Positions 3,375 through 48,115 of a DNA stretch of 64,000 nucleotides are shown here, piece after piece; the stretch's first letter is position 1; every line of letters starts with the position of its first letter. The stretch spans positions 1 to 64,000 of the IMG/VR virus record IMGVR_UViG_3300020201_000009. One strand, 5' to 3'. This DNA comes from a virus. The translations under genes and the position numbers were made by a program. The notes under the pieces are model-generated. The model did not search any database. It was not told the origin of the DNA and saw only the letters and a program-made list of their open reading frames with translations.

Positions 3375-6300
3375 ATGGCTTGGGACGCAGGAAAAAATCG
3401 TATAAAGAAATGGGAAGATACAAATGAAAAGTTATCGCAACTAGAAGGAGAGTTAACTGATCAGGAGGCTATGGAGACTTTCGCCGAATACTTGTTTGCC
3501 AATCCAAGTATTTGTTTGGAATTATTGGCAAATTTAAAAATTTACCCCCTTCAAGAGCTAATGATAAAGGGATGGATGAGAAATGATTATTCGATGGCAA
3601 TTTGGGGCCGAGGCATGAGTAAATGCATAGACATTAATAGCTCAGTATTAACGAACAAGGGAATTATTCCAATAAAAAATGTGGAAGTTGGCGATAATAT
3701 TTATGCCGAAAAGGGCGTTCAAAAAGTATTAAATAAATGGTTTAATCCAGAAGAAGACGGATTTAAAGTTACGACAAAAAAAGGCTATAGTTTTATCGCA
3801 AAGAAGGGTCATAAATTTAAAATTTACGATCCAGAAACATTTGAAACCAAGTTTATAAATATAGAAGATACTCGTTTAGAGAATCTTATTCCAATAAAAG
3901 TCGGTCCTAATTACTGGGGAAATCAAAGTTTAGATTTTGATAGTAAGGTGAAAGAAAAATTTTTAGTTAATATTGAAAACGATTTAGACTTTTATTATTA
4001 TATTGGACGGCTCTTAGGAGACGATTGTACTACTCACAAAATTGGAATTACATCTCCTGATAAAGAAATGATTGATTTTTTAATAGATTATTACAAGAAG
4101 ATAGCACCAGAAAATAATATTGAACAGTATAAAAAAGTTGATAATGAAACATCCGGCGCATGTATTTCTAACCAAAACCTAACATGTGTTTTAGAGTCTC
4201 TTGGCTTTGATTTATCATTACATTCGGTCTATAAAAAAATTCCCTCTAAACTATTATCTGTTTCGGGTGATAAAATTGCTATGATTCTTCGGGGTCTTTT
4301 CGATACCGGCGGTTACGTTTCATTGATGGAGAAGGAGGAAAAGAAATCTATTAGTTGTCTAATCGGGTATAGTTCTTCTTCTAAAGAAATGGCTAAACAG
4401 GTTCATACATTGTTGCTGAATTTCGGTGTTGTCTCTTCATTCGCTTTGCATTCGTCTGGAGAAAAAAATAAACTGGTAAATGGACAATTCTGCGAAACTC
4501 AAGACGATTATAAGGTGATTATTACTGGGAGTAAATATATAGAAAAATTCAATCAAATTATTGGGTTCGGATTAACCAGAAAACGAGAGAGAGTTGAAAA
4601 ATATTTAGCTCTAAAGAATCCAAAGAGTCTTTATTTTGATAATGTTATACCGAATCTCAGGAAAGCTTTGAAGAAAAAATTTACTCACTGTGGATTTAAA
4701 AAAGAAGAGTTTGAGCTACACGATTCAATGAATCTAGAAAAACTTAAGGAGATTTTTCCATTAATCCCAGAAGGTAAAGAAAAAAATAGCCTTAAAGAGC
4801 TAATAGATAGCGATTTTTATATCGATAAAATTGAATCTATAATACCGTGGAAAACTCAAACTTGTGATATAACAGTAGACAAAGAAGAGTGTTATTGGTC
4901 AGATGGAGCTATTCATCATAATAGCTTCACGGCAGCAGTTTTCTGTCTTTTTTGGTCAGTCTTCAACCCCGATAATCGTATCATTCTAATTTCGTTCGTC
5001 TTTCGTGCGACCAGAAGAATTCTTGAACAAATCGAAAAGTTTGTAAACGCAGATGGGGCTCATAATATTAAAAGTTGTTTTCCTAGCGATTTGCAAAAGA
5101 GAAACGATGAATGGAAATGGGCATTGCCAAATGGGGCTTCTATTGTTTGTTTACCTTTGGGCGATGGAACAAAGATTCGTGGTTTCCGTGCAGATACTCT
5201 CATTATCGATGAGTATAATTACATGAATTCTAATGTTATTACAGAAGTAATTCAACCATTCCTCGTCTCCTCAAATAATGTTTCCTCACAAATGGAAATT
5301 GATCGTATCGAAGACAAACTAGTGGCACAGGGGAAAATAAGAAATGACCAGAGAACAACTTTAGATGAAAATATTAAAGTTATCGCCTTAAGTTCGGCTG
5401 GTTTCCAGTTCGAAGACATGTACAAAAAGTATTCTTATTGGGTGTCCAATATTATGGAAGGAGGTATTACAAAGAGAGACAGTGGCGAAGAGGAGGTGAG
5501 GCTTGGTGTTGGTGAAAATATTTCCTATTTTGTTTCAAGACTCAGTTATGAAGCCGCTCCCAAGGGATTGTTAAATGCAAAAGTTATTGAAGAGGCACGA
5601 CAAGGCGCTAGTCAAAGCGTTTTCGATAGAGAATATAGGGCAATTTTTACAGCAGACTCGGACTCTTACTATTCTGCTAAAAAAATGGTAGAATGCACAA
5701 TCCCAAATGGCCAATCGCCATGTATGGAAATAGAGGGCGATAATGGATCGGAATATATTCTTTCAATCGATCCATCTTTCTCTTCGGCAGAGCACTCTGA
5801 CTATTTTGCAATGGTTATTTTAAAAATCGTCAAGAAAGACGGGAAGAAAATTCCCCTTCTTGTGCATTGTTACGCAGTTGCGGGCGGAAGTCTTAAAGAT
5901 CATACTCTTTATTTATATTTTTTACTTAAAAAATTTAATGTAGTTTATGTAGCTATTGACTCTTCTGGTGGAGATAGTAATGAATTTATTAATTCTTCAA
6001 ATAATTCTAAACTATTTAAAGATAGTAAAATAGAATTATTGGACATACAAGCGGATTTTGCTAAACATGATAATTCTGATCTTATAAAAGAAATTAAAAA
6101 AAGTTATAACTTGCAGCAAAAAAGAATTGTACAAAAACAACATTTCGGCGCTGGTAATTTTTTAAGATCCGCAAATGAATATATGCAAGGTTGCTTTGAT
6201 AGAAAGAATTTAATGTTTGCTGGTAAGATTAATAGTAATGCCAACGAACTTTCCAGAATATCGGGTACCAGTATGGATATACTAAAAGATCATAAATCCT

Positions 6301-6578
6301 TTAAAGATATTGATATCGAGGAATTTATCGAAGACCAAGATAATTGGATAGATGTCACAAAACAAGAATGCGCACTTATAGAAATTAGCACAAGCGCACT
6401 TGGAACAATGTCGTTTGATTTACCATTGTCTTTGCGAAGAAGTAAACAGGCGAATAGAGTGCGTAAGGACTTGTACTCAGCGTTGTTACTGGGAAATTGG
6501 GCGTTCAAACTATATATTGAATGTTTGAATGAGCCCGAGGTAAAGACTTTTGCGACTTTTGCTCCGTTTTTGGGATAA
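3375..6578 (+). CDS. terL: Terminase large subunit, intein-containing
   Basis: Spliced Walker A WGRGMSK/SFT; IRGFRA plus Walker B LIIDEY; RNase H-like nuclease LSIDPS...SDYFA...RKDLYSAL; portal immediately downstream. Confidence 0.85.
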   Translation: MAWDAGKNRIKKWEDTNEKLSQLEGELTDQEAMETFAEYLFANPSICLELLANLKIYPLQELMIKGWMRNDYSMAIWGRGMSKCIDINSSVLTNKGIIPIKNVEVGDNIYAEKGVQKVLNKWFNPEEDGFKVTTKKGYSFIAKKGHKFKIYDPETFETKFINIEDTRLENLIPIKVGPNYWGNQSLDFDSKVKEKFLVNIENDLDFYYYIGRLLGDDCTTHKIGITSPDKEMIDFLIDYYKKIAPENNIEQYKKVDNETSGACISNQNLTCVLESLGFDLSLHSVYKKIPSKLLSVSGDKIAMILRGLFDTGGYVSLMEKEEKKSISCLIGYSSSSKEMAKQVHTLLLNFGVVSSFALHSSGEKNKLVNGQFCETQDDYKVIITGSKYIEKFNQIIGFGLTRKRERVEKYLALKNPKSLYFDNVIPNLRKALKKKFTHCGFKKEEFELHDSMNLEKLKEIFPLIPEGKEKNSLKELIDSDFYIDKIESIIPWKTQTCDITVDKEECYWSDGAIHHNSFTAAVFCLFWSVFNPDNRIILISFVFRATRRILEQIEKFVNADGAHNIKSCFPSDLQKRNDEWKWALPNGASIVCLPLGDGTKIRGFRADTLIIDEYNYMNSNVITEVIQPFLVSSNNVSSQMEIDRIEDKLVAQGKIRNDQRTTLDENIKVIALSSAGFQFEDMYKKYSYWVSNIMEGGITKRDSGEEEVRLGVGENISYFVSRLSYEAAPKGLLNAKVIEEARQGASQSVFDREYRAIFTADSDSYYSAKKMVECTIPNGQSPCMEIEGDNGSEYILSIDPSFSSAEHSDYFAMVILKIVKKDGKKIPLLVHCYAVAGGSLKDHTLYLYFLLKKFNVVYVAIDSSGGDSNEFINSSNNSKLFKDSKIELLDIQADFAKHDNSDLIKEIKKSYNLQQKRIVQKQHFGAGNFLRSANEYMQGCFDRKNLMFAGKINSNANELSRISGTSMDILKDHKSFKDIDIEEFIEDQDNWIDVTKQECALIEISTSALGTMSFDLPLSLRRSKQANRVRKDLYSALLLGNWAFKLYIECLNEPEVKTFATFAPFLG
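3624..4922 (+). mobile_element. Intein (433 aa) with LAGLIDADG-type endonuclease domain inserted in the terminase P-loop
   Basis: Starts CIDINSSVLT; ends TCDITV...GAIHHN followed by Ser+1; internal blocks YYIGRLLGDD and LRGLFDTGG. Confidence 0.9.
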
Positions 6579-26491: not shown

Positions 26492-27214
26492 TTAACTTAT
26501 ATCAAAAACTTGAACAACGTCTACGGAAGCGTCATTTATATTATATGACTGTGTCGAATAGCTAAAGCTTTTCGATATATATTTTAGACTTGGATTGTTA
26601 GTAAGTCTACCAACGGGCATCAATAATTGGAAGAGGTCAACGCCGCCTTTTTCTTCAATAAAGGTTTGTATAGCAAGAGTTTCCTTATCGGAACGACCTT
26701 GAAACGCAAGTTTCCACATATTAATATTATTATTAAGAGATACTCGCGCCCTTTGGCTATAGCCATCACCTAGTTGGGCTTCAATAACTTGTGAAGTATT
26801 TTCTAAAGAAGTCGAATAAGATGGTAAAAAATTGAAACCCGTTGTCCAAGCCGGGTTCATTAAACCATTGATAGTCCAAGCAACCGCGCTAGGTAGGGAG
26901 TTCACGCCGGGAGATAGAAATTGAACAAATCCGCTTCCAGCATTAAGAACCATACCCGTATAATCAACCGTTTCGATAAGACTCCCTCTTTGGAAATCAG
27001 GGAAAAGTCCGGTTGAAGAAAAATACAAAGTTCCAAGATTATCTTGGCGTCCAAAAAAACTCGCTGTATAAGATGGCTTATGTAATGGAATATAACCAGA
27101 ATTTAAATCCATCGTTGAAAAATATAATGTCGGATTGGAGTTGCTAGCCCGAACTATATCATATTTATTATATAAAAAAATTGATGAGTATGCGTAAAAT
27201 GTATTATTAGCCAT
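26492..27214 (-). CDS. Lambda gpM-like distal tail protein with N-terminal extension
   Basis: C-half LGDGYSQRARVSLNN...WKLAFQGR...FIEEKGG; directly after the tape measure. Confidence 0.8.
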   Translation of the reverse strand: MANNTFYAYSSIFLYNKYDIVRASNSNPTLYFSTMDLNSGYIPLHKPSYTASFFGRQDNLGTLYFSSTGLFPDFQRGSLIETVDYTGMVLNAGSGFVQFLSPGVNSLPSAVAWTINGLMNPAWTTGFNFLPSYSTSLENTSQVIEAQLGDGYSQRARVSLNNNINMWKLAFQGRSDKETLAIQTFIEEKGGVDLFQLLMPVGRLTNNPSLKYISKSFSYSTQSYNINDASVDVVQVFDIS

Positions 27215-30200
27215 TATCTATTATTTCCTTGACGGTTTAATTGTTGAAAGGTGCCACCGTTGCGATACTGATCGGCAATCGCCTCGTTAACTTTCTTTTC
27301 GATTGCGGAACTTAAAGCCAATCCAAACTCTTTATTTCGAGTCATATCACCATCAGATTGCAAAGAAGTTGATGTTTCACTTGTAACATCTCCTCCATTA
27401 TTATTGATTGTAACGCTTATACTGACAACTGGACTACCCATAGAACCAGCCATATCGGAAGCTGAAACATTCGGGATGGGGCCTCCGTCGGCAGCAAATG
27501 ATACAGGAGTTGATATTGCAGAAATCGGTCCACCATTGAAACGATGGACGGGTGTTTGAGCAAACTCAGATGTAGCGCCGCCGTATGCAAACTTAGGCAT
27601 TGAAGCCATTGGTGAGGCATAGTTAGGGATGCTATTAGTAGCCATACCACCACCAGAGAATCTACGAGTCGCGGGAGCGGCACCGAAAGAAGCTATTGAA
27701 CTTTGATCGGGTCCGAGATAGGCATAACGATCTTGGGAAAGATTGGTATTTACCAACTGAGCCTGTTCTTGTTCCAATCTAATTCTTTCAGCGGTAATTT
27801 CTTCATTTGTCATCGCTCGACCCTCAGATGGAGAGTCGGAACCAGATGCACGAAATGCCAAGCCAAGAGCGACAGAAGCACCGAGCCCGAATAAAGCGCT
27901 CCTCAATGGGTTTGAAGCGGCTTTCGAAGCGGCAGCACCAGCGGCACTAGAACTACTTACAGCGGCACCGGAAGCGGCACTACTAGCAGCCTTTGCGGCG
28001 TTTGATTGTAACCCGATGCCTTTTAGGTAGCCTGCGTTTTGAGCGACTCCGCCTAGAACGCCGCCGCCGATTGCTCCGATTAAAGCGCCTTTTTTGCCGC
28101 CAGTGGCATAACCAAGACCACCGCCTACTAGGGCACCAAGGATTGCTCCACCAATAAATTTCTTCTGGACCTTGCCGCCACCATTTAAAGTGTTGAGCAT
28201 GTCAGGACCATATTTATTAACAGAAGATTTTTTAATTACATAAGAACCAGATTGCAGGGAAGCTGGGACATCGTCTCTTAAACCAGAGCCACCAGAAACC
28301 ATACCGTAAGAATTCATTCCCCTTCCACTTGATAAAGCGCCGGGAGCAAGAGTACCATTATTTAACTGATTAAGCATACTCGGTCCGAGAGTACGAGCGG
28401 TATTAGGATCTAATACATATTCCCCGCCAGTTAACATTGCAGGCACGCGGCCACCACCGGCAAATTTTGGAATATCACCACCCCGATTTCTTCCAATTGG
28501 ACCACCTCTATACGCTTTCGCGGGTGCGCCTATAGGTGCGCCACCAAAAGCAGAACCCAATAAACGAGTCACAGCTTGACTAGCGAAGGCTCTCGCCGCG
28601 TCATTGAGCACATTCAGAACAAAATCTCGAAAGGCATCTTTCCCCGATTTTGCACCTGTGACGAAATCGCCAAAAGCCCCGCCAAGGTTATCTCGTAGAG
28701 AGGCCCCAACAATTCTACCTTCTTCGGCGAATGACTGTAAGTCTTCTTTGCCGGCTTTTAGACTCTGTCCGAAACCGGCTTTAAAAGTGTCGAATCTGGT
28801 CTCGGTGGCGGGTCCAAGAGGATCTCTACCGTCCACAGTAAGGGGTTTGAGGGCAACCGTACCGTTAGGCAAAACGCTTTCGATTGTACCGCTTAATTCG
28901 TTTGTCTTTTGGGCGAGATCCGCTGTCTCGGCTGTAGAATCTTTTTGAGCATTGGTATTGTTACCAACGGTATTATTCAAAATCCTAACAACCTTGTTAG
29001 AATCAGCGTTTATTTTAAGTTGAGCGCCGTCAATTTCCTTCGTGCGATTGATAACTCTATCTTCGGCAAGCGCTTTCCCGGCTTTAGCGGTGGTAATTCT
29101 ATCTTGAGTATTCGATAATACTTTAGTAGGAACTCCTTCTTTTATCTGTTGATTCAGTAATTTTTCTAAACTATCAAGTTGAAGACTAAAATCACGAATC
29201 GAGGTTGCGTCTTCTTGCTGGGCATATAGACGAGCTAATTGTTCTAGTAAGCCAACGGCTTTAAAAGTATTATCGGCAGTTTCACGGATACCGGTAGTTA
29301 GAACCTGATCGCCTAGCGTGATCTTTCCGGATTTAAATAAAGCGTCAACGTTTGCTTTTGGATCGGCGTTTAAGAACTTCTGAGTTTCGGCCTCAATATC
29401 GATAGACAGATTATCGAGAGTTGCTATCAATCTTTTTCCAACCTCTCTAAGATTTTTATCGCTAGAACCAGAAAGTTCTTCCGCTGCGCCCCTGAGACTT
29501 GCGTCATCGGTTCCAACCTGTTTCTTCAACAGATCGCCGGAAATACCCGCTAGAGTTCCTTTCGCGGAAATACCTTGTAAATCCCTTTGGCGTTTTAAAG
29601 TGTTATCGCTTTGAGCAATACCTAGAGAATCCAAACCACGACTGAAATCTAATTGCTTGTTAGCGCGGAAAATGTCGCTACTAAATTTAGAAGAACCTTC
29701 GACCCGGCTAGTATTAAGAGAAGCGATGGTTTGTGCATCAAATCCACCCGAATTTAAGAACTTTTGCTGTTCGGCAATAGCATTTTGAATCGATTGGATT
29801 TTGTTGCTCTCTACGGCTAGATCGATCTGTAAACCTGTATTATTTTCAACTTGACGCAGCTGAAGAACGACCGCGCGAAGTTCTTTGGCTGTTGCGGAAT
29901 TGGTGTCTCCAAAAACGGTTTTAATAATTTTCTCTAAATCAGAAGCGGAAGAGGCTCCCTGTATTGCTTCGGCTACGGAAGTACCAGTTTTACCAAAAGC
30001 CTGAGTCGCCCTTTCTCTACCTAGACTTGAAGTAAAGTCAGCGATGGCCGTCGAAAAACTCGATTGCCTTTCTTGGTTTGAAGACTCTATAGTCGAACGA
30101 AGATTTTCACTATTTTGAAGAGCCCCAGATTGTCTAGAATTTAGAGCGCCTGTATTTAAAGCGGCATTAATGTTTTCAGCACGGAATCTTTCGGCATAAT

Positions 30201-33200
30201 TAAATAAAGCCGTACTTGCTAGTTGGAATTCCCTGATGCCTTCGACGGCTTTATCAAACTCTTTTCGAATATTGAGACTAGACGCCGCAAGAGCCTCGTT
30301 TGGGGCATCGCCTTTAGAGGCAGCAAAATTGGCTTGGGCGATTTTTGCAAACTCCGAAAGTGTTTTAGCAATATCTCCGGATTTGGAACCCCTTAACTGG
30401 GTAATGATTTCTTTTTGCTGATCCTCGGTAAGAGCCGTTTTATTTAGAATTTTTTCAAACTCCTTAACCAATCTTTCTATATCAACGATTCCACTCACTC
30501 TTGAATCTTTAGCGAAAGTGGCGGCGGAAGCCCTTGTTACGGGTCCCGAGTTAAATCTTTCTAAGGCTTTTTGAGCGGCGGCGGATTGTTGTTCAACCGC
30601 ATTAAAGAATACAGAGAAATCTGTATTTTCATTAATATCCGGAGTCAATAAATTAATGGCAGTTTTTCTGGTTTCTACGGTTGGTTTTTCTCTAAGGGCG
30701 CTAAATGCGGCTACTGCTTGAGAGCGGCGATTTTCATTAGCCGCGTCTTTCGCAGCCGCTCTTAAGACTTCACCAATTTTTTCAACATCAGCGCCAGCCC
30801 TAGCTAACTCGCTACGAAATTGCGCTGGTAAATTGTTAGCAATTTGTCTTTGACTAGAGCGGGCGCTTTGAAGTTGATCTTTACTCCCACTTTTGGAAAT
30901 AACATCATTGATATCTTGTTGAGCGATTGCATATTGATTCAATCCATCTAGTAATCTGGAGTTTCTGGATTCGACAAGTTGCGTAGCTTGCGCTAATTCT
31001 TCGAAAGATTTCCTAGCTTTACCAGAAACACCAATGACAAGACCAATTGCGCCACCCAATGTAGCGCCAATAGCTGTACCAACCGGCCCAAATAGAGATC
31101 CAATTGTCGCACCTAAACCAACGCCGCTTGACGCGCCTTCAATGCCACCGGCAACTTTGCCCTTAGTAGTGCCGCCTTCAGCATTGGGAATTTGGCTGGC
31201 AATAGCGCCCCCCAAAAATGGGAGTGCGAAAGAAGCGCCGAAACCGAAATTTTGTAATCTAGACGATCTATTTTCCCCAAGACCTCTCGCGGACCCACGG
31301 ATGGAATCTTTTTGATTTTGATTAAATTTTCCACCGCTAATAATATTTTCAGCGGTTTTGTCAAAATTACCGAATAGACGAGTTTGCTTCTTTAATTGAT
31401 CAATAATTCCAGCTTGGTTAACGGGCGATTGCGATCCTTGTATTTTTTGTTGAACAAGGTTATTAATAGCAGATAGGGCGGTTTTATCCCCTCTTAAACC
31501 ACGAGTATCTAAACCTAATTCTTGTATGGAATCTTTACGAAACTGTCCTGTTAATACGGCTTTTTGTTTTTTATTTAAGCTGTCAAAACCACCAGAGGAA
31601 ATTTTTGAATCGATGTCTCTAAGTTGAAGATTACGACTGTTTGAGCCGCGAGCGTTGCTTTTCGTAAGAGAAATTTGTGTTTGTATTGCGGCGGCTTCTT
31701 TCTCATTTGCAAGGGTCGCTTCTTTTACACTTCTTTCATATGCAATCAGAGAAAAGATAGCTTTTTCTTGGACACTTCCAAGTTGAGTGGATTTAGCGCC
31801 GCTATCTAATACTTTTTGGGATGCGACAATGTACGCCTTCTCCAAAGTAATACCAGAATCAATTAATCCCTTAACATTTGTTTCAAATTGTTGTTGAAAA
31901 GTTTCAGCTTTACCGAGAGCAACAACTGAATCAGATCGTGTTGTGTTTGCTTGCAAACCTTTGCTGCTTCTAACCGCAGCGGTTTCGACGAAAGCGCCCT
32001 CACGAATGCCTTTAATAGATGCTTGCCTTCCGGGTTTATTGATACCCAAACCACCAAAGGAATTAACAATTTCATCTAAATTTTGATCCGTGACACTGTT
32101 TAAATTCTTTTTTAAAGATTCTTCTAATTGAGTCGCGATTTTCTTTTGGCTCGCTCCGAAAGCTCGTATAATAAAGTCAGGGTCGGGATCGCCGAGTTGA
32201 CCTTGTTTCGTGAAAGCATTGAAAGAGCTATCGTTTATATCCTCTGAGCCCAAAAATCCCCTTTCGCCTTTTGTAAATATTGGTGCGTTTCCAGCATCGA
32301 AAGTCAAATTAGCCTCTATCTCTTGGGCTTGCGCTAATTCTTGTGCCGCTTCACTGGCAGAGTCAGAATTTTTTTGTCTTTCGATAATATCAGCCCTGAT
32401 AGATTTCGCTTGTAATAACAAAACATCCCTAACGGCGGCAAGGGAAAGAGTATTTAGATCCAATTCCTTAATATAGCTTTTATTCGCCGCAGCTAGATTG
32501 ACCGCGCCTCCTTCTATCGCGCTACCATATGCCACAAAAATTTTATCAAGCTTATCTTGGGTTGCAACTGATATAACATTACCCTTCGACCCTATTAAAC
32601 CCAAACCAGAGAATGGAGAATCTTTTGGAGTCTGAACAAAGTTTGGAACATATCCACCCGCAGCGCCAGCGGTTCGAGGATTTTTACCTTGAGAAATGGT
32701 TCTATTCACACCTTGGAAACCGCCAATTGGTTCGTCCCTTTTGTTAGCGACAAGTAAACCGAAAGGATTCCCAGAGTTTTTAACTCTAGAATCCGAATCA
32801 ACGTAAATTTGTGTAGGGGATAAACCAGCGGCTTGTTCACGCGCTAGGGCTTCACCTAAACCGGATGGAAGAAATCCTCTGGCGAAAGCTGATCCTTTTC
32901 TTTTCAGGAATCGAGGATTTTGGATTTCATTCAATAAAGAAACTTCTCTTTCATTATCAAAAGCTTCAATAGCATCGACGTGACCATCCTTACCCTTGGA
33001 TCTATAATATTTTTTTAATAAAGATGAATCAATACCAATACCACCAACGCTGTTAGATAATTTTAGTAAACCATCGACTCCAACTCTATCTACAATCTTT
33101 TTAAGTCTGTCAGGATCTTTAAAAATATTTTTTTCTTTTAATTGGGCAATAATAAGGGCTCGCGAATTACCACTATTATCAAAAGGAATTTCGCCAGAGG

Positions 33201-35739
33201 CGGGAGAAAAATTCTTTACAGCCGGTCTGTTAGTGACCGTAGATCTATTAAAAACACCAAATGTTTTAGCAATCTTGAGAGATCGAGATGTTGGTATTAC
33301 ACCTTGTGCAGTTGATAAGCGAGAACCTAATAAATGAGTGACTAAATTTTCAAAAGTTTTTACGCTGGCGGGAAGCGTCGAATTGGATTTCGAAAGGTTT
33401 TTTGTGTTTAGTGGATCTAATCTTTGAAGGCCATCCTCTGAAAATTTATTTGTAGAAACCCCTCTAAAAAGAGTAGTCAGCGAATCCCTACCGCCAGCAA
33501 AGTTCGGCGTGAAACCCTCCGCAAAGCGAGGCGACTTCATACTAAAGCGGCTAAACACTTCATCAATCTGGGCTCGGATTTCAGATGGTTTCTTAGAAAG
33601 GTCTAGATAGGAAGTGGTTCCAAGACCATATTTCTCGGGCGTGTATTGAATAAAATTACCGCCCAACAGATCGCTCATTTGGGCTTGTGCCTTGGGGTCT
33701 CTGGCATCAACGACGTCGCGAATGAACCTAGCCAATTTTGGGTCTTGAGCTTCGATTTTAGAAAAATTATTCAGGAAACTTGGTCCGACTTCCTCTAAGA
33801 AGGTCTCGAAGGCATCTGAAGGACGTTTAGCCGTTTTGAAAGATACCGGAGTAAAGCCACCAGCAGCAGAAATCTTCTTAGCACCGGCAGGTAAACCCAT
33901 CGATCTAACCATATCTTGATTAAATACAGCAGACCCGCCATTTGAATAATTGGGAACTATATACTCAGAAGTGTTAGCAACAACAGTCCCAGTTTTTCCA
34001 CCGCCGAAAGCGAAATTCGGCATAATAACCGGCCTAGCATTTCGTGGAGCGCCACCAACGCCTTTTTGTACAGAAGAAACTTCTTTGGCTACTAAATTGG
34101 GAACATAACCATCAGCCGCGCCAACACCCCTTAAGGTTTTGATAGTTCTCGGCGAGAAGCCTGTAATAAGACCATTATCTCTAGCTTTGAGAGCGTTAAC
34201 AACCGATAGTTGCCGATTTAAAATAGATAATACAATTTGTTCCTGTTCGGCGACGCTCTTCGCGGCAATAAATCTCTGTTGTTCAAGCGAGGTCGATTGC
34301 GCCAAGATCGTATTTAGACCTTGCATCGCTTGCGTTTCTTTCGAACGAATCGCTAGAATATTACCTAAATCCTTAAAAGCGGTTATTCCAAGTTTGGATA
34401 TGATCTTAAACAACGCTATGCCAATAGTGAGACCACCAGAGGTAGAAATGACATTACCGATACCTTTTAAAATACCTTCGGCAACATTCGCACCGATTTG
34501 ATCGCCCGCATCCAATCCCTCTTTTCCAATGTTCTTAAATTGTTTGGCGACGGAGCCAAGGAAATCGTTACCAAGTAAATTTTTAAGAGGATCGGCGAAA
34601 GTCAAACTGCCGAGAATCGAACCAATTTCAGTCGCAGATGTTCTAAAATTTTGTAGAACTGCCGAGAGCGATTTATTTAAAGCTTCGTTCCTTAGAGTCG
34701 CTTCGTTTGTCGCCCCTTTGGCAACTTCCAATGCATTAGTATAGGAGTTATAAGAACGGGCCAATTCTCCTACTAGAGACTTAAATTGATTGATTTGGAA
34801 AATACCAGCGGAAAGTTCCGAGACAACGCCTTGTTGTTCTTTCGATAAATTGGCGAAATTCGCGCCAATATTCTTTAAAATTGTATCGGCTGCAAGAGCG
34901 TCTCCACCTAATGTTCTGACTTTAATACCGAAATCTTCTAACTGATCCAAAACTTCAGGGCGATTAATACGTGTGAAGATTGATTTTAGAGCGTTACCAA
35001 TTTCGGAACCACCTCTCGCGGTAATTTGTTGAGCTGTAGTAACGAGAGAAATTAATGAATCGAAACCGACACCGGCATCTTGAGCAGTAGAGCCGACTCT
35101 AGAAAGTGCTTCGACTAGATCGCCCGCTGAAACGGCGAATTTCGAATCGACTGCAACTAATTTATTAATGGCGACGGCGGCGGTTAAACCTTCCCTACGA
35201 TACGCATTTAATACAGCCGTGAGAGATTCAACGGATTTGGTTGCATCCAAACCGGAAAGACGAGTTAAAATCTGCGCTTGGTTGATACGATCTAATGTGT
35301 CGGTAACGCCCAAACCTTGACGGGAAAATTCAAGAGCGGCTTTAGCCGTAGTTTCGAAGGATTGAGCGGTATTACGAGCTACGTCGAAAACCTGAACCTT
35401 AAACTTATTAAGTTCGTTATTTGTTAAGGCGAAAACGGAATTGATATCAGCAAAGGCTTTTTCAACCGCAACCGTCGAATTGGCCAATTCGGCCATTCCA
35501 CGAGTAAACGCGGCGATGACGGAAGCGGAGGCACCGAAAGCCAAGACGCGCTGGTTAGCGGCAGCAAGGGAATCCGTAAACTTACTTACATCCGCAGTAA
35601 TTCTTCCGAGGGGAAGTTGTAGTGACCTAGTATTGAACTTAAAGTCAAATTTTTGAGCCTGATTAAGGGCATCACGAACCTGATTCACGAAAAACCGTGA
35701 ATCTAGACCAATTTTTAGAGTGCCGTCGATGCCTGCCAT
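27214..35739 (-). CDS. Tail tape measure protein (2841 aa) with inserted domains
   Basis: TP901-like core (ALEFSRQG, SRVGSTAQDAGV, EIGNALKSIFTRI), Ala-rich helices, Gly-zipper hydrophobic segments, C-terminal VPAMLTGGEYV motif; precedes gpM-L-K-I-J. Confidence 0.9.
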   Translation of the reverse strand: MAGIDGTLKIGLDSRFFVNQVRDALNQAQKFDFKFNTRSLQLPLGRITADVSKFTDSLAAANQRVLAFGASASVIAAFTRGMAELANSTVAVEKAFADINSVFALTNNELNKFKVQVFDVARNTAQSFETTAKAALEFSRQGLGVTDTLDRINQAQILTRLSGLDATKSVESLTAVLNAYRREGLTAAVAINKLVAVDSKFAVSAGDLVEALSRVGSTAQDAGVGFDSLISLVTTAQQITARGGSEIGNALKSIFTRINRPEVLDQLEDFGIKVRTLGGDALAADTILKNIGANFANLSKEQQGVVSELSAGIFQINQFKSLVGELARSYNSYTNALEVAKGATNEATLRNEALNKSLSAVLQNFRTSATEIGSILGSLTFADPLKNLLGNDFLGSVAKQFKNIGKEGLDAGDQIGANVAEGILKGIGNVISTSGGLTIGIALFKIISKLGITAFKDLGNILAIRSKETQAMQGLNTILAQSTSLEQQRFIAAKSVAEQEQIVLSILNRQLSVVNALKARDNGLITGFSPRTIKTLRGVGAADGYVPNLVAKEVSSVQKGVGGAPRNARPVIMPNFAFGGGKTGTVVANTSEYIVPNYSNGGSAVFNQDMVRSMGLPAGAKKISAAGGFTPVSFKTAKRPSDAFETFLEEVGPSFLNNFSKIEAQDPKLARFIRDVVDARDPKAQAQMSDLLGGNFIQYTPEKYGLGTTSYLDLSKKPSEIRAQIDEVFSRFSMKSPRFAEGFTPNFAGGRDSLTTLFRGVSTNKFSEDGLQRLDPLNTKNLSKSNSTLPASVKTFENLVTHLLGSRLSTAQGVIPTSRSLKIAKTFGVFNRSTVTNRPAVKNFSPASGEIPFDNSGNSRALIIAQLKEKNIFKDPDRLKKIVDRVGVDGLLKLSNSVGGIGIDSSLLKKYYRSKGKDGHVDAIEAFDNEREVSLLNEIQNPRFLKRKGSAFARGFLPSGLGEALAREQAAGLSPTQIYVDSDSRVKNSGNPFGLLVANKRDEPIGGFQGVNRTISQGKNPRTAGAAGGYVPNFVQTPKDSPFSGLGLIGSKGNVISVATQDKLDKIFVAYGSAIEGGAVNLAAANKSYIKELDLNTLSLAAVRDVLLLQAKSIRADIIERQKNSDSASEAAQELAQAQEIEANLTFDAGNAPIFTKGERGFLGSEDINDSSFNAFTKQGQLGDPDPDFIIRAFGASQKKIATQLEESLKKNLNSVTDQNLDEIVNSFGGLGINKPGRQASIKGIREGAFVETAAVRSSKGLQANTTRSDSVVALGKAETFQQQFETNVKGLIDSGITLEKAYIVASQKVLDSGAKSTQLGSVQEKAIFSLIAYERSVKEATLANEKEAAAIQTQISLTKSNARGSNSRNLQLRDIDSKISSGGFDSLNKKQKAVLTGQFRKDSIQELGLDTRGLRGDKTALSAINNLVQQKIQGSQSPVNQAGIIDQLKKQTRLFGNFDKTAENIISGGKFNQNQKDSIRGSARGLGENRSSRLQNFGFGASFALPFLGGAIASQIPNAEGGTTKGKVAGGIEGASSGVGLGATIGSLFGPVGTAIGATLGGAIGLVIGVSGKARKSFEELAQATQLVESRNSRLLDGLNQYAIAQQDINDVISKSGSKDQLQSARSSQRQIANNLPAQFRSELARAGADVEKIGEVLRAAAKDAANENRRSQAVAAFSALREKPTVETRKTAINLLTPDINENTDFSVFFNAVEQQSAAAQKALERFNSGPVTRASAATFAKDSRVSGIVDIERLVKEFEKILNKTALTEDQQKEIITQLRGSKSGDIAKTLSEFAKIAQANFAASKGDAPNEALAASSLNIRKEFDKAVEGIREFQLASTALFNYAERFRAENINAALNTGALNSRQSGALQNSENLRSTIESSNQERQSSFSTAIADFTSSLGRERATQAFGKTGTSVAEAIQGASSASDLEKIIKTVFGDTNSATAKELRAVVLQLRQVENNTGLQIDLAVESNKIQSIQNAIAEQQKFLNSGGFDAQTIASLNTSRVEGSSKFSSDIFRANKQLDFSRGLDSLGIAQSDNTLKRQRDLQGISAKGTLAGISGDLLKKQVGTDDASLRGAAEELSGSSDKNLREVGKRLIATLDNLSIDIEAETQKFLNADPKANVDALFKSGKITLGDQVLTTGIRETADNTFKAVGLLEQLARLYAQQEDATSIRDFSLQLDSLEKLLNQQIKEGVPTKVLSNTQDRITTAKAGKALAEDRVINRTKEIDGAQLKINADSNKVVRILNNTVGNNTNAQKDSTAETADLAQKTNELSGTIESVLPNGTVALKPLTVDGRDPLGPATETRFDTFKAGFGQSLKAGKEDLQSFAEEGRIVGASLRDNLGGAFGDFVTGAKSGKDAFRDFVLNVLNDAARAFASQAVTRLLGSAFGGAPIGAPAKAYRGGPIGRNRGGDIPKFAGGGRVPAMLTGGEYVLDPNTARTLGPSMLNQLNNGTLAPGALSSGRGMNSYGMVSGGSGLRDDVPASLQSGSYVIKKSSVNKYGPDMLNTLNGGGKVQKKFIGGAILGALVGGGLGYATGGKKGALIGAIGGGVLGGVAQNAGYLKGIGLQSNAAKAASSAASGAAVSSSSAAGAAASKAASNPLRSALFGLGASVALGLAFRASGSDSPSEGRAMTNEEITAERIRLEQEQAQLVNTNLSQDRYAYLGPDQSSIASFGAAPATRRFSGGGMATNSIPNYASPMASMPKFAYGGATSEFAQTPVHRFNGGPISAISTPVSFAADGGPIPNVSASDMAGSMGSPVVSISVTINNNGGDVTSETSTSLQSDGDMTRNKEFGLALSSAIEKKVNEAIADQYRNGGTFQQLNRQGNNR

Positions 35740-45070: not shown

Positions 45071-48000
45071 TTATGTTCGAAGCCTTGCACAGGTTGATTT
45101 GCTATCCAAGCCGCTTTTGATTAAATATATATTTCCATTTGAAAGTAAATATTTATTGCTACGATAAAGTAACTTTCTGTTATCGGAAGATAAGATATCT
45201 AAAAGTAGATCGTAATCAGTATTCTGGTACTCAGCGGATTCTTCAACAAAGTTTTTGTATGACTTGACCGAAAAGCGCTCGATATTCCCTATATCAAAAT
45301 ACGTGAGTCTTATCGAAGATATTTCTTCTTGACTCGCGGTTTTATTGTATAATTTATATTTAATTCCAGCAGACTTAAGATTTTTAACAAATTCTAATAC
45401 GGAACCATCTCTAACTTCTACTGTGACTCCAACAACGTTTTTACGAAAAGATGTTAGCAAATTAATATTAATAGGTTTATCGGTAATAATACTTACTGGA
45501 CGGGTTTGTAAAGCCCCACTTAGGTTTTCTTCACTAAAATGGTAATCCATTCTACAAATAAGAGCTTGTCCATTTAAAAATTGAGGGCTAACGTTTAAAT
45601 CGGGGACCCATTCGATAACGGTCTGATTATAAGCTTCCCCAATGAGGTAACTTTTACGCTGAAATTTATTTGGACCATTAAAAATTTCTAAAATAGCATT
45701 AATGACATTTTCGGGAGGAATTTTGTTAATAGTTTTTGGGTGTTCTTGAGAATACGAGGGTACTCGGTTATTTCGATGGGACTCCAGTAAAAAAGTCTTA
45801 CTTGGGTTTTTCCACGCGGGGCCATGAGCCGAAATAGAAGTTGAGCCGTACAGGGAAACAAGGGGTTTGCCAAGAAATCCGGCTACGTGTGTCTGCCAGC
45901 TGTCGGGACCAATATGGCACATACCGTGGCGTAGTAGGTGATAGGCTTGGCGAATTGTAGTTTTTCCTTGGAAGTGTTCGCAATGTTTCAAAGGCGAATC
46001 CTCTTTCCCTCCCAACTGAATCATACGAATGTTATTGACTTTTAGAAGAGGGGATAAAATATCTAGAACTTCATTCATGTAATCGTAATTTTTTGATTGC
46101 TGTCCAGAGCCATTTTGAAAAGTAATATAGTTTCCTTCTATATTTGGGAAATAAGATTCTTCAATTTCAATAGATCCAACTTGGAGGGCGGTAGATCTGG
46201 AATATGTTTCGATTAAATTTGAATAAGAGAGATAAGATAATTGTCTTTGCGTATGAATAGCTGGATGAAAGTAATATTGGAAAAGCGCCTTTTCCTTATT
46301 CTGGCCAGCACCGATAGCAAACATTTCTTGTTCAAAGTGTTGAATATAGGGGAGAACTTTAAAAATTCTTGCGTTTCCTTCTAGAACCTCAAAATATTTC
46401 TGTTCACACATTACATATAAATCGACATTTGGATATTTTTTCTGAAACGATTCAAATAGAGAAGTACATAAAATAATATCACCAATTGATTCTTTGATTA
46501 AAAATAACGCTCTTTTGTTTGGGCGAGACCAATCAACAAGGCTATTAAAATCAAACGATTTATGTTTATTGTTTTCTTCGATTGCGACATTAATAAATAC
46601 GTTATGAACTTGCTGGCGAGTCATACCGTTTTTTATTTGATTGACCCAATGTAAACGACCATGACCCTCTGGACCTTCATCTAGTTTTAAAATTTCTTTA
46701 TAGAGAGTTGTTAGAAAATCATACTCTGATAAATCTTGAGGAAACGGAAAGTTTTGATTCTTTTCTTCCGCTTCGAGTTTAACCATTTCCCAATCAACGA
46801 ACGGTAATGAGTCAATAAATTCCTCAATTTTTTTGCCGTTAACTTCTAGATCATAATTTTGTTTAGCCCATTCGCGAGATTTTTTACCAAGTTCTTCCCG
46901 CTTTTTCGGCGGCATTTCGTAAACTTTTGTAAACATTTTCGCAATGGAAGATGGGTAAGGACTCGACTTTATAAAGTGAGTACCAAATTCGGTATATTTT
47001 GCCCAATCAAAACCTAGAGATCCCTTATTTAATTCAATAATATCTTCTCCATAGGAATAATCAGCGGTTAAAATAATCTTTTCTGCCGCTGCGGCTTCGA
47101 CACATGGTAATTCACACGCGCCCGAAGTCGCGGGATGAGAAAATACATCCATAATATTATACAATTCGTTTAACTGTTCTTCGGTGACACCTTTACCAAC
47201 GGATACAGTGTGAAGAGATTTTTCTTTACCCGAAAATGGACATGTCTGGTCATTTCCGGCGAAAGGATGAACAACATATTCGCTGGATTCGCTAGAGACG
47301 TAAGCCGTCCAAATGTCTTTATGGTTAACTCCATATTGAGTCGCCAGTCTCATAATATCCCAGCCCTCACCGAAGTTTGTGACTAATAACAAAATAGCCT
47401 TAGCTTTCGGGTTTTGCTTCTTAAAGAGAGCAAATCCCTCCATTCCATTTGTCACCGTTAGTTTTCTAAGCTGGTTACGAAATACGTCACCAATGATAAA
47501 CGTATCTGGGGAAATATTGTATTTTGCCCGAATTTCCCTCTTCTTTTGTTCTCCTAGATTATAAAAACCACTCAAATCAACAAGTGGATATTGAGTTTTT
47601 ACATGTTGGTATTCCTTACCTTGTTTATGAAATTCTTTACGAGCGAAATCACTCCATGTCCAATAGTGTTTGGTCTTTGTTGCGTCTTCTTTAGCGATAA
47701 GCGGAATACTATCATGGGTTGCCCAAAAGACGGATGAAATTTTACCCCAAAAGTTTTTGCCAGTGTTGAAGCCAATCCCCCATGCGTCCTCGACGAAAAA
47801 CGCGACATCGGGCCTGAATTCAGACACAACCTTTTCGACAAAATACTCTCCATAAGCTGCACGTTGGGCTTTGGCGGGATCGGAGTTCAGCACCTGAATC
47901 TCTGGCGGCGTAAAGGGTAATGCTCCATGGGCTTTCCATGGAAGTTGCTGGAGATCAGGGTTATTCGCCTGCATTTGAGCGGCGTATTCTAACAGTTCAT

Positions 48001-48115
48001 ATTTGCCAGTTTTCTGTAAATAGGTGAGAACATTTTTTGTGTTCTTGCCAAAGCCTGTAAATAGCTTTGAATAGTTGCTATTATATAATACCCTCTTCTT
48101 GCGCAATTCTGCCAT
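45071..48115 (-). CDS. Multidomain glycosyltransferase (GT4-like plus GT9/heptosyltransferase-like); C-terminus probably frameshifted, true end about 45001
   Basis: TGFG, RNQLRK, LNELYNIMDVFSHP...ELPCVEAAA (GT-B); ESIGDIIL, IQLGG, HIGPDSWQTHVA...PLVSLYG (GT9-like). Confidence 0.8.
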   Translation of the reverse strand: MAELRKKRVLYNSNYSKLFTGFGKNTKNVLTYLQKTGKYELLEYAAQMQANNPDLQQLPWKAHGALPFTPPEIQVLNSDPAKAQRAAYGEYFVEKVVSEFRPDVAFFVEDAWGIGFNTGKNFWGKISSVFWATHDSIPLIAKEDATKTKHYWTWSDFARKEFHKQGKEYQHVKTQYPLVDLSGFYNLGEQKKREIRAKYNISPDTFIIGDVFRNQLRKLTVTNGMEGFALFKKQNPKAKAILLLVTNFGEGWDIMRLATQYGVNHKDIWTAYVSSESSEYVVHPFAGNDQTCPFSGKEKSLHTVSVGKGVTEEQLNELYNIMDVFSHPATSGACELPCVEAAAAEKIILTADYSYGEDIIELNKGSLGFDWAKYTEFGTHFIKSSPYPSSIAKMFTKVYEMPPKKREELGKKSREWAKQNYDLEVNGKKIEEFIDSLPFVDWEMVKLEAEEKNQNFPFPQDLSEYDFLTTLYKEILKLDEGPEGHGRLHWVNQIKNGMTRQQVHNVFINVAIEENNKHKSFDFNSLVDWSRPNKRALFLIKESIGDIILCTSLFESFQKKYPNVDLYVMCEQKYFEVLEGNARIFKVLPYIQHFEQEMFAIGAGQNKEKALFQYYFHPAIHTQRQLSYLSYSNLIETYSRSTALQVGSIEIEESYFPNIEGNYITFQNGSGQQSKNYDYMNEVLDILSPLLKVNNIRMIQLGGKEDSPLKHCEHFQGKTTIRQAYHLLRHGMCHIGPDSWQTHVAGFLGKPLVSLYGSTSISAHGPAWKNPSKTFLLESHRNNRVPSYSQEHPKTINKIPPENVINAILEIFNGPNKFQRKSYLIGEAYNQTVIEWVPDLNVSPQFLNGQALICRMDYHFSEENLSGALQTRPVSIITDKPININLLTSFRKNVVGVTVEVRDGSVLEFVKNLKSAGIKYKLYNKTASQEEISSIRLTYFDIGNIERFSVKSYKNFVEESAEYQNTDYDLLLDILSSDNRKLLYRSNKYLLSNGNIYLIKSGLDSKSTCARLRT

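Follow-up and report, generated by a model that had tools for sequence, protein, structure and literature searches.

A putative ADP-ribosyltransferase module in an exchangeable slot of a giant phage tape measure protein

Can the tape measure protein (TMP) of a phage tail carry a toxin-type enzyme into the host cell? The question is raised by a 64,000-nucleotide stretch of viral DNA (the window; positions 1 to 64,000 of the IMG/VR record IMGVR_UViG_3300020201_000009), in which a minus-strand open reading frame (ORF) at 27214-35739 encodes a 2841-aa TMP, labelled P0001. A first-pass annotation, made from the sequence alone, had proposed that an ADP-ribosyltransferase (ART) effector domain is embedded in this protein. 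In the present analysis, we found an optional module at residues 748-954 (32878..33498; this and all other features of the gene lie on the minus strand), recognised from its homologues, from profile-profile comparison and from its feature neighbours. With fair confidence, we interpret it as a divergent ART cargo of the R-S-ExE type, predicted to be nearest to cholera toxin, pertussis toxin and NarE, which occupies a cassette slot in the N-terminal third of the TMP and would be injected to modify the host.

Three short motifs follow one another in the module. The first is R759-G760 ([FYW]-R-G, 33460..33465), whose arginine is the putative NAD-binding residue on strand 1; the second is P816-T817-S818 (33286..33294), the counterpart of S-T-S, followed by A824..F827; and the third is E930-R931-E932 (ExE, 32944..32952), followed by V933 and a hydrophobic stretch. 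The first-pass annotation had placed the triad correctly, namely LTTLFRGV at residues 754-761 (R759), VIPTSRSLKIAKTFG at residues 814-828 (S818) and DNEREVSLL at residues 928-936 (E930/E932), and the two sequences that it described as brackets, FAEGFTPNFAGG at residues 739-750 and FARGFLP at residues 952-958, were also found where it had put them. Its description of the insert as Lys-rich, by contrast, held only mildly (K makes up 9.2% of the module vs 6.3% of the whole protein), and for the insert that it called non-helical a low-confidence model of a homologue shows two helices in the Ser-to-Glu spacer. Between the Ser motif and ExE there is an insertion (about residues 870-925, 32965..33132) with the invariant residues K881 and G902, recognised from the alignment and from the model of a homologue, which is probably helical and specific to this family. 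The ordered motifs appear to fit the R-[ST]-E clade of ARTs in their order, spacing class and local context: an aromatic residue stands before R-G, the Ser closes a hydrophobic run ahead of A..F, and V and further hydrophobic residues come after ExE. Alike contexts are present in T4 ModA/ModB (LWRGV / LYRGIS, VVSAS..A..FAS and EQEVMIP).

Is this triad more than a chance assembly of short motifs? Searching with the module and its conserved flanks, we collected 120 related giant TMPs, and for the module alone residues 735-965 were used as the query. About 15 homologues of the module were detected, all within TMPs of uncultured phages, and they formed two sister families. Local BLAST and HMM searches among the 120 TMPs located homologues in P0002, P0003, P0046, P0048 and P0012, and further members were the IMG/VR loci L001 and L005, the fragment P0121, and L012, which lies on a contig binned into a Neomarinimicrobiota metagenome-assembled genome (MAG). 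The sister family comprised seven modules (P0016, P0045, P0049, P0051, P0059, P0061 and P0064) and was linked to the first by profile-profile comparison (93.9% probability, E 1.5e-7). When the flanks carrying the P-N-F linker peptide were trimmed, subgroup A (P0001, P0002 and P0003) and subgroup B (six sequences) aligned across 143 columns and kept the three motifs in register (88.9% probability, E 2.4e-6), at a between-subgroup identity of 17-30%.

In an alignment of eight sequences, only 11 residues of the module body were invariant: R759, G760, L799, L803, S818, F827, K881, G902, E930, E932 and V933 (R759 and G760 are covered by 7/8 sequences, the fragment P0121 being without this region). 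A larger alignment of 16 sequences showed R-G in 15/15 covering sequences, E-x-E-[VI] in 16/16, and the Ser in every sequence except one member with Thr. The invariant Ser was taken to be the third residue of the S-T-S position because of its spacing to the A..F helix; the first residue of that position was variable (S, P or A, with Pro in P0001), and the Ser motif of other members read SSS, STS or SFS. Moreover, the pattern [FYW]RG ... xS-x5-[AS]xxF ... ExE[VI] was present in 13/122 collected proteins, vs 0.4 expected per shuffled set. The triad, which was kept across every detectable homologue as the first-pass proposal implied, is therefore beyond chance on the grounds of homology, invariance and pattern statistics, and is the top conserved feature of a real domain family.

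Wider searches were run with the same family. Using phmmer, the module alone retrieved only itself from 1.84 billion cluster representatives; tblastn of the window module against 50,697 phage records retrieved none, and tblastn of a homologue against the same records gave only matches at E of at least 2, one of them antisense to an annotated gene and one a hypothetical protein without a Pfam family. In IMG/VR, scans recovered the records of two collected proteins and no other module member, scans of JGI metagenome contigs gave no module member, and profile searches of a set of 5.8 billion proteins added two fragments and no more.

What kind of domain does this family represent? A feature search of the ESM-atlas was run after the ART hypothesis had been set from the motifs. 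In this search, the homologue L001 matched NarE clusters at 0.97 and 0.96 (190 and 191 of 256 features in common), followed by PT-S1/Scabin-like, ArtA and enterotoxin-A clusters, and its ten best named matches all belonged to one clan; the window module matched NarE, PT-S1 and Scabin-like clusters at 0.88-0.90. By the calibration of the tool, shuffled proteins get to 0.95 about once in 100. At the level of features, the module is kin to ARTs. Considering its motifs and its neighbours together, we regard descent from an ART as highly probable, and catalytic activity of the module as somewhat less so.

The module is fenced by copies of a recurrent linker peptide. The upstream linker FAEGFTPNFAGG (33490..33525) is a copy of the G-[FY]-x-P-N-F motif by its position and the motif logo, and the downstream linker FARGFLP (32866..32886) is a degenerate copy, in which G955 and P958 are conserved and at whose residue 952 the homology with the closest relatives resumes. 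The linker consensus, A-[AS]-x-G-[FY]-[IV]-P-N-F-A, occurred in 645 copies in the 120 TMPs vs 3 after shuffling, most of them at 10%-50% of protein length. The 483 segments between motifs fell into 97 clusters (62 of these singletons), and the ART-like modules of P0001, P0012, P0046 and P0048 each filled one inter-motif interval exactly.

The first-pass annotation had suggested looking for domain swapping at this site, and this is what we observed. P0004, P0034 and P0031, which are the closest to P0001 over the whole length, hold another module of 170-280 residues in the slot of P0001 748-954, and their homology to P0001 breaks exactly at residues 748 and 952. Equivalent slots of other relatives carry recognised enzyme domains: P0005 has a Pfam ART-PolyVal domain (residues 676-813, E 8.5e-22) between motifs at 649 and 851, and P0029 has a GNAT acetyltransferase (residues 977-1029, E 1.2e-6) between motifs at 949 and 1133. 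The ART-PolyVal sequence of P0005 reads FHGS / YFTS / DEYV, by eye of the His-Tyr-Glu type, and it therefore belongs to another ART lineage than the R-S-E module of the window; phmmer found no link between the two. In addition, L003 (IMGVR_UViG_3300029318_000015) and P0012 were 81% identical over their first 940 residues and differed by whole cassettes further on, residues 1975-2400 of P0012, including its ART-like module, being without a counterpart in L003. A 33-nt direct DNA repeat is located at the linker sites 32636-32668, 33497-33529 and 34091-34123 (61-79% identity), and this repeat may serve as microhomology for cassette exchange.

The alternative slot module (P0004 971-1249, P0034 742-914, P0031 651-819 and P0010 843-1083) has kinase-like motifs, namely a GxGxFGxV loop, a Lys in ..VFKKF.., DLxxDNF and vvDPG. 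Searches of Pfam and PDB sequences gave no support for a kinase-like reading of it; if that reading were right, a second kind of take-over enzyme would occupy the same slot.

The modules on both sides of the slot are widely distributed. The preceding module (residues 633-741, 33517..33843; module cluster 1) is common to many related TMPs (63% to P0004 862-970). The following one, conserved and about 70 aa long (residues 961-1028, 32656..32859; module cluster 0), is 55% identical to P0004 1250-1338 and is succeeded by a GYVPNF copy of the motif (residues 1029-1034, 32638..32655), assigned by its position and by the 33-nt repeat. This module of about 70 aa, with the core ...GLLVAN[KR]RDEP..G.QGV.R..., formed the largest cluster (176 copies in 106/120 TMPs) and belongs to no Pfam family; in P0001 it directly precedes the PNF motif, and inspection by eye suggested a possibly similar unit around residues 550-627. 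The module of about 70 aa may act as a constant frame for the cassettes.

How could such a module reach the host? Probably, an enzyme that modifies the host is delivered ready-made by the phage along with the contents of its tail, and we infer the following course. Inside the tail tube, the TMP would be kept metastable and incompletely folded, and on infection it would be expelled ahead of the DNA, its C-terminal and central hydrophobic segments helping to form a conduit through the envelope. The N-terminal cassette region would come out behind the membrane-active C-terminal parts and immediately before the DNA, and would enter the cell. There, the module would fold in the cytoplasm, with or without cutting at the linkers, and, with NAD+ from the cytoplasm as substrate, would ADP-ribosylate a protein of the host. 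Arginine would be the likeliest acceptor, given the ExE motif, which is typical of Arg-specific ARTs (PMC11606950). The outcome would be take-over of the host or counter-defence before phage gene expression.

Previous studies offer precedents for several of these steps. T5 pb2 is a trimer that is metastable in the tube and is cleaved in maturation; the enzymatic domain that it carries is expelled into the host, possibly with a need to refold (PMC10038345). During genome injection, a TurboID fusion to the inner-membrane protein ManZ labelled the lambda TMP (PMC13190303). Further, ready-made ART and GNAT domains are delivered by phages in polyvalent proteins and MuF fusions (PMC7824862, PMC7302621).

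Several results weigh against an injected, active ART. Among curated HMMs and solved structures, we obtained no match to the module in Pfam, PHROGs, NCBIfam or PDB sequences, and PDB profile searches with the module returned chance matches only. The Pfam models for NarE (PF21641) and Scabin-like proteins (PF22596) gave no match in the genome of the window, nor did the NarE model in two homologue records, and neither these nor other curated ART models matched the module or a homologue even at lenient E-values. Both AlphaFold models were too poor to judge the split beta-sandwich of ARTs: the window module reached a pLDDT of 38, and the homologue L001, modelled by AlphaFold2 with five sequences, a pLDDT of 53 and a pTM of 0.52; Foldseek (PDB, BFVD) and VIA-align wide on these poor models gave no meaningful match. 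The feature score of the window module (0.88-0.90) goes with a low recognition value and, on the calibration of the tool, counts as no more than a lead. The two caveats that the first-pass annotation had attached to its own proposal were borne out, since P0001 has Pro at the first position of S-T-S, differing from most homologues, which carry S-x-S, and its Ser-to-Glu spacing is unusual (S818 to E932, 114 residues vs 89 in the shortest homologues). As regards delivery, no protease domain able to release the module was among the Pfam matches of P0001, three copies of a folded 22-kDa domain would be too big for the lumen of a siphovirus tube, which measures about 4 nm, and NAD+ occurs in the cytoplasm.

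Some of these points have an explanation within the family. The long Ser-to-Glu distance arises from the family-wide insertion (K881, G902) together with about 24 extra residues common to P0001, P0002 and P0003 only. Because three folded domains do not fit side by side in the tube, storage would have to be unfolded or staggered. In the low-confidence model of L001, FRG lies on a strand, the Ser motif coincides with a strand that leads into a helix, and another strand comes after ExE; its best-predicted part is the two helices at 108-139, in the spacer between the Ser motif and ExE (pLDDT 76-86). Since an HMM match was absent, we did not file the module under the NarE or Scabin-like Pfam families, and no NarE or Scabin-like sequences for a profile-profile comparison were present among the 401 sampled genomes. 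With T4 ModA/ModB, hhalign produced no significant alignment (7.5% probability, confined to the Ser motif), the 16-sequence profile gave no match, and an IMG/VR search for Mod relatives gave only near-identical Mod copies. ART-PolyVal (PF18760) had no match in P0001. Module matches to ATP-grasp (E 0.5), ferritin (E 0.48), Hsp83 (E 0.12) and L22e were at chance level and were taken as noise. The ART-effector reading of the first-pass annotation is partly supported, by triad conservation, by the feature neighbours and by the exchange of modules at this site, and it gained neither a curated HMM match nor a usable fold model.

Which other explanations would account for these data? The one that survives best, although we consider it unlikely, is that the module descends from an ART and is not an injected protein-modifying enzyme, being instead a pseudo-enzyme or an NAD-binding structural part, an enzyme acting in the periplasm or membrane, or one with a non-protein target such as phage or host DNA, as in Scabin and pierisin. 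The Scabin-like clusters among the feature neighbours would agree with a DNA target, but Scabin-type DNA-targeting ARTs carry QxE, not ExE. The Pro as first residue of STS in P0001 and the large insertion in place of the usual short loop before ExE likewise speak for this explanation, whereas the strict retention of R, Ser and both Glu at 17-30% identity argues for catalysis; a part in tail building is also countered by the close relatives, which lack the module, so that it must be dispensable for this purpose. From general knowledge, there is no NAD+ pool in the periplasm. The lack of a release protease among the Pfam matches speaks for this explanation, as does T5 pb2C, which works in the periplasm (PMC10038345); ExE points to arginine targets (PMC11606950).

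We hold it for clearly less probable that the module is unrelated to ARTs, its motifs being kept for some other activity or binding surface and its language-model neighbours being misleading. HMM and structural support is indeed missing, the Ser-to-Glu spacing is odd, and the atlas matches are to be read as leads, with recognition values of 1811 and 2250 (window module and L001 searches) that both lie under the tool's mark of 2300. However, the hypothesis preceded the feature search, which returned only R-S-E toxin families for L001, with scores that shuffled sequences equal about once in 100; moreover, the motifs match the clade in their order, their local context and their invariance, and the predicted strand, strand-helix and strand at the three motifs fit it. 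Finally, it is very improbable that the cassette region, including the module, is length filler or recombination debris of an oversized TMP, which sets tail length and has no effector role, because, although tail length is set by TMP length and relatives differ freely in the modules that they contain (97 clusters, 62 singletons), a catalytic-type triad is invariant across copies of 17-30% identity, recognised enzyme domains (ART-PolyVal, GNAT) are found in slots of the same kind, and linker conservation is far too strong for debris.

The proposal of an injected ART cargo module can be taken one step further. We tentatively suggest, as a possibility that we would not yet favour, that the giant TMPs of this clade of aquatic siphophages are programmable effector-delivery polyproteins, in which the PNF peptide is both a recombination joint and a processing site that releases a variable set of ready-made enzymes into the host cytoplasm before the DNA. 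Cutting at PNF would be performed by a protease or by Asn-dependent self-cleavage, and the released set would include the R-S-ExE ART, the H-Y-E ART, the GNAT and the kinase-like module. Asn-Phe and Asn-Ala self-cleavage sites are known in the capsids of tetraviruses and nodaviruses.

Why would an ART in this place matter? Since virion-delivered enzymes act before phage gene expression, they are prime candidates for host take-over and pre-emptive counter-defence. Ready-made ARTs are already known from the T4 head (Alt) and from MuF/polyvalent fusions, and TMPs that bear cell-wall hydrolases are known as well; a toxin-type NAD-using enzyme in the motif-fenced, exchangeable slot of a TMP would, if real, extend both ideas. 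It would also represent an ART family missed by every curated model searched. A full-text literature search (TMPs with ARTs, polyvalent proteins, embedded effectors) gave no description of an ART inside a TMP. Further, the cassette system provides a natural, testable scaffold for what can pass through a siphovirus tail.

The remainder of P0001 (27214..35739) looks conventional. A PhageMin_Tail domain (PF10145) covers residues 121-304 (34828..35379; Pfam, 75 bits, E 7e-21), PHROG tape-measure families match the protein (best E 4e-36), the C-terminal part has a weak Pfam match to Tape_meas_lam_C, and homologues of lambda gpM, gpL, gpK, gpI and gpJ are encoded directly downstream. By this domain, its great length and its place upstream of distal tail genes, P0001 is a TMP of the PhageMin_Tail/TP901 type. 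A hydropathy scan revealed a Gly-rich hydrophobic segment, a candidate for membrane insertion, at residues 1549-1575 (31015..31095), and a C-terminal Gly-zipper with hydrophobic segments at residues 2528-2546 and 2611-2629 (27853..28158), the latter region having a weak Pfam match to Gly-zipper_YMGG. Against this conventional layout, the module stands out as optional cargo.

The source record is a virus of 145,870 bases, classed as linear and about 92% complete. The phage is uncultured and seems to be aquatic, its host and environment being suggested only loosely. One module fragment traces to a TARA ocean sample. Related TMP genes (L008-L016) were present on contigs binned in Proteobacteria, Flavobacteriaceae, Neomarinimicrobiota, Halobacteriovorax and Bacillota MAGs; these are probably for the most part viral contigs caught in bins, which give no reliable host. 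Elsewhere in the window, 3375-6578 (plus strand) encodes a 1067-aa terminase large subunit (Terminase_6N) with a LAGLIDADG_3 domain at residues 300-397, which suggests an intein or a homing-endonuclease insertion, and 45071-48115 (minus strand), which adjoins virion genes, encodes a 1014-aa protein composed of GT9 and GT1 glycosyltransferase domains and DUF4214.

How does the module compare with known systems? It resembles the group of NarE, cholera-LT, pertussis S1 and Scabin-like toxins (PF21641, PF01375, PF02917 and PF22596, respectively) in [FY]RG, in S-x-S with A..F, and in ExE with a hydrophobic strand, and differs from them in having no HMM-level similarity, an insertion of about 50-80 residues before ExE, and P-T-S in P0001. 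These proteins are secreted toxin subunits, whereas the module lies inside a 2841-aa virion protein and its kinship with them is predicted only. Among phage proteins, T4 Alt and ModA/ModB are R-S-E ARTs for early host take-over, with local motif contexts like those of the module. Alt is delivered ready-made with the DNA (PMC5512222), as a separate protein in the head, and ModA/ModB are made after infection; in contrast to the separate head protein Alt, the module is internal to a tail tape measure.

Polyvalent proteins and MuF-ART fusions (PMC5512222; MuF-VIP2 in Microbacterium phages, PMC7302621) likewise contain a ready-made ART or GNAT in a large virion-delivered polypeptide, and the related TMP P0005 carries the Pfam ART-PolyVal domain. 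Here, however, the carrier is a TMP, the modules are fenced by the PNF peptide, and no metallopeptidase release domain was found with Pfam. Polyvalent proteins are defined by several effector domains together with such a metallopeptidase (MPTase); P0001 has one enzyme-like module and no detected protease domain, and its relatives add ART-PolyVal, GNAT and the kinase-motif module. The polyvalent-protein paper of Iyer et al. 2017 does not mention tape measure proteins (PMC5512222). T5 pb2 (Linares et al. 2023, PMC10038345) is also a TMP with an enzymatic domain that is expelled into the host envelope, but this enzyme is a C-terminal muralytic peptidase acting on peptidoglycan, while the module is N-proximal, toxin-like and predicted to need cytoplasmic NAD+; pb2 is cleaved during maturation, whereas cleavage at the PNF linkers is a proposal only. 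TreX and Tre1 (PMC11606950) are R-S-ExE ARTs that form the tip of a large carrier, an Rhs protein of the type VI secretion system (T6SS), and in this way enter bacterial cells ready-made, and TreX is reported to be homologous to Scabin-like ARTs (PMC11606950); the delivery machine of these two, the T6SS, differs from a phage tail. On these analogies, the module would work like T4 Alt, the polyvalent ARTs and the T6SS Rhs-ARTs, and its carrier would resemble T5 pb2.

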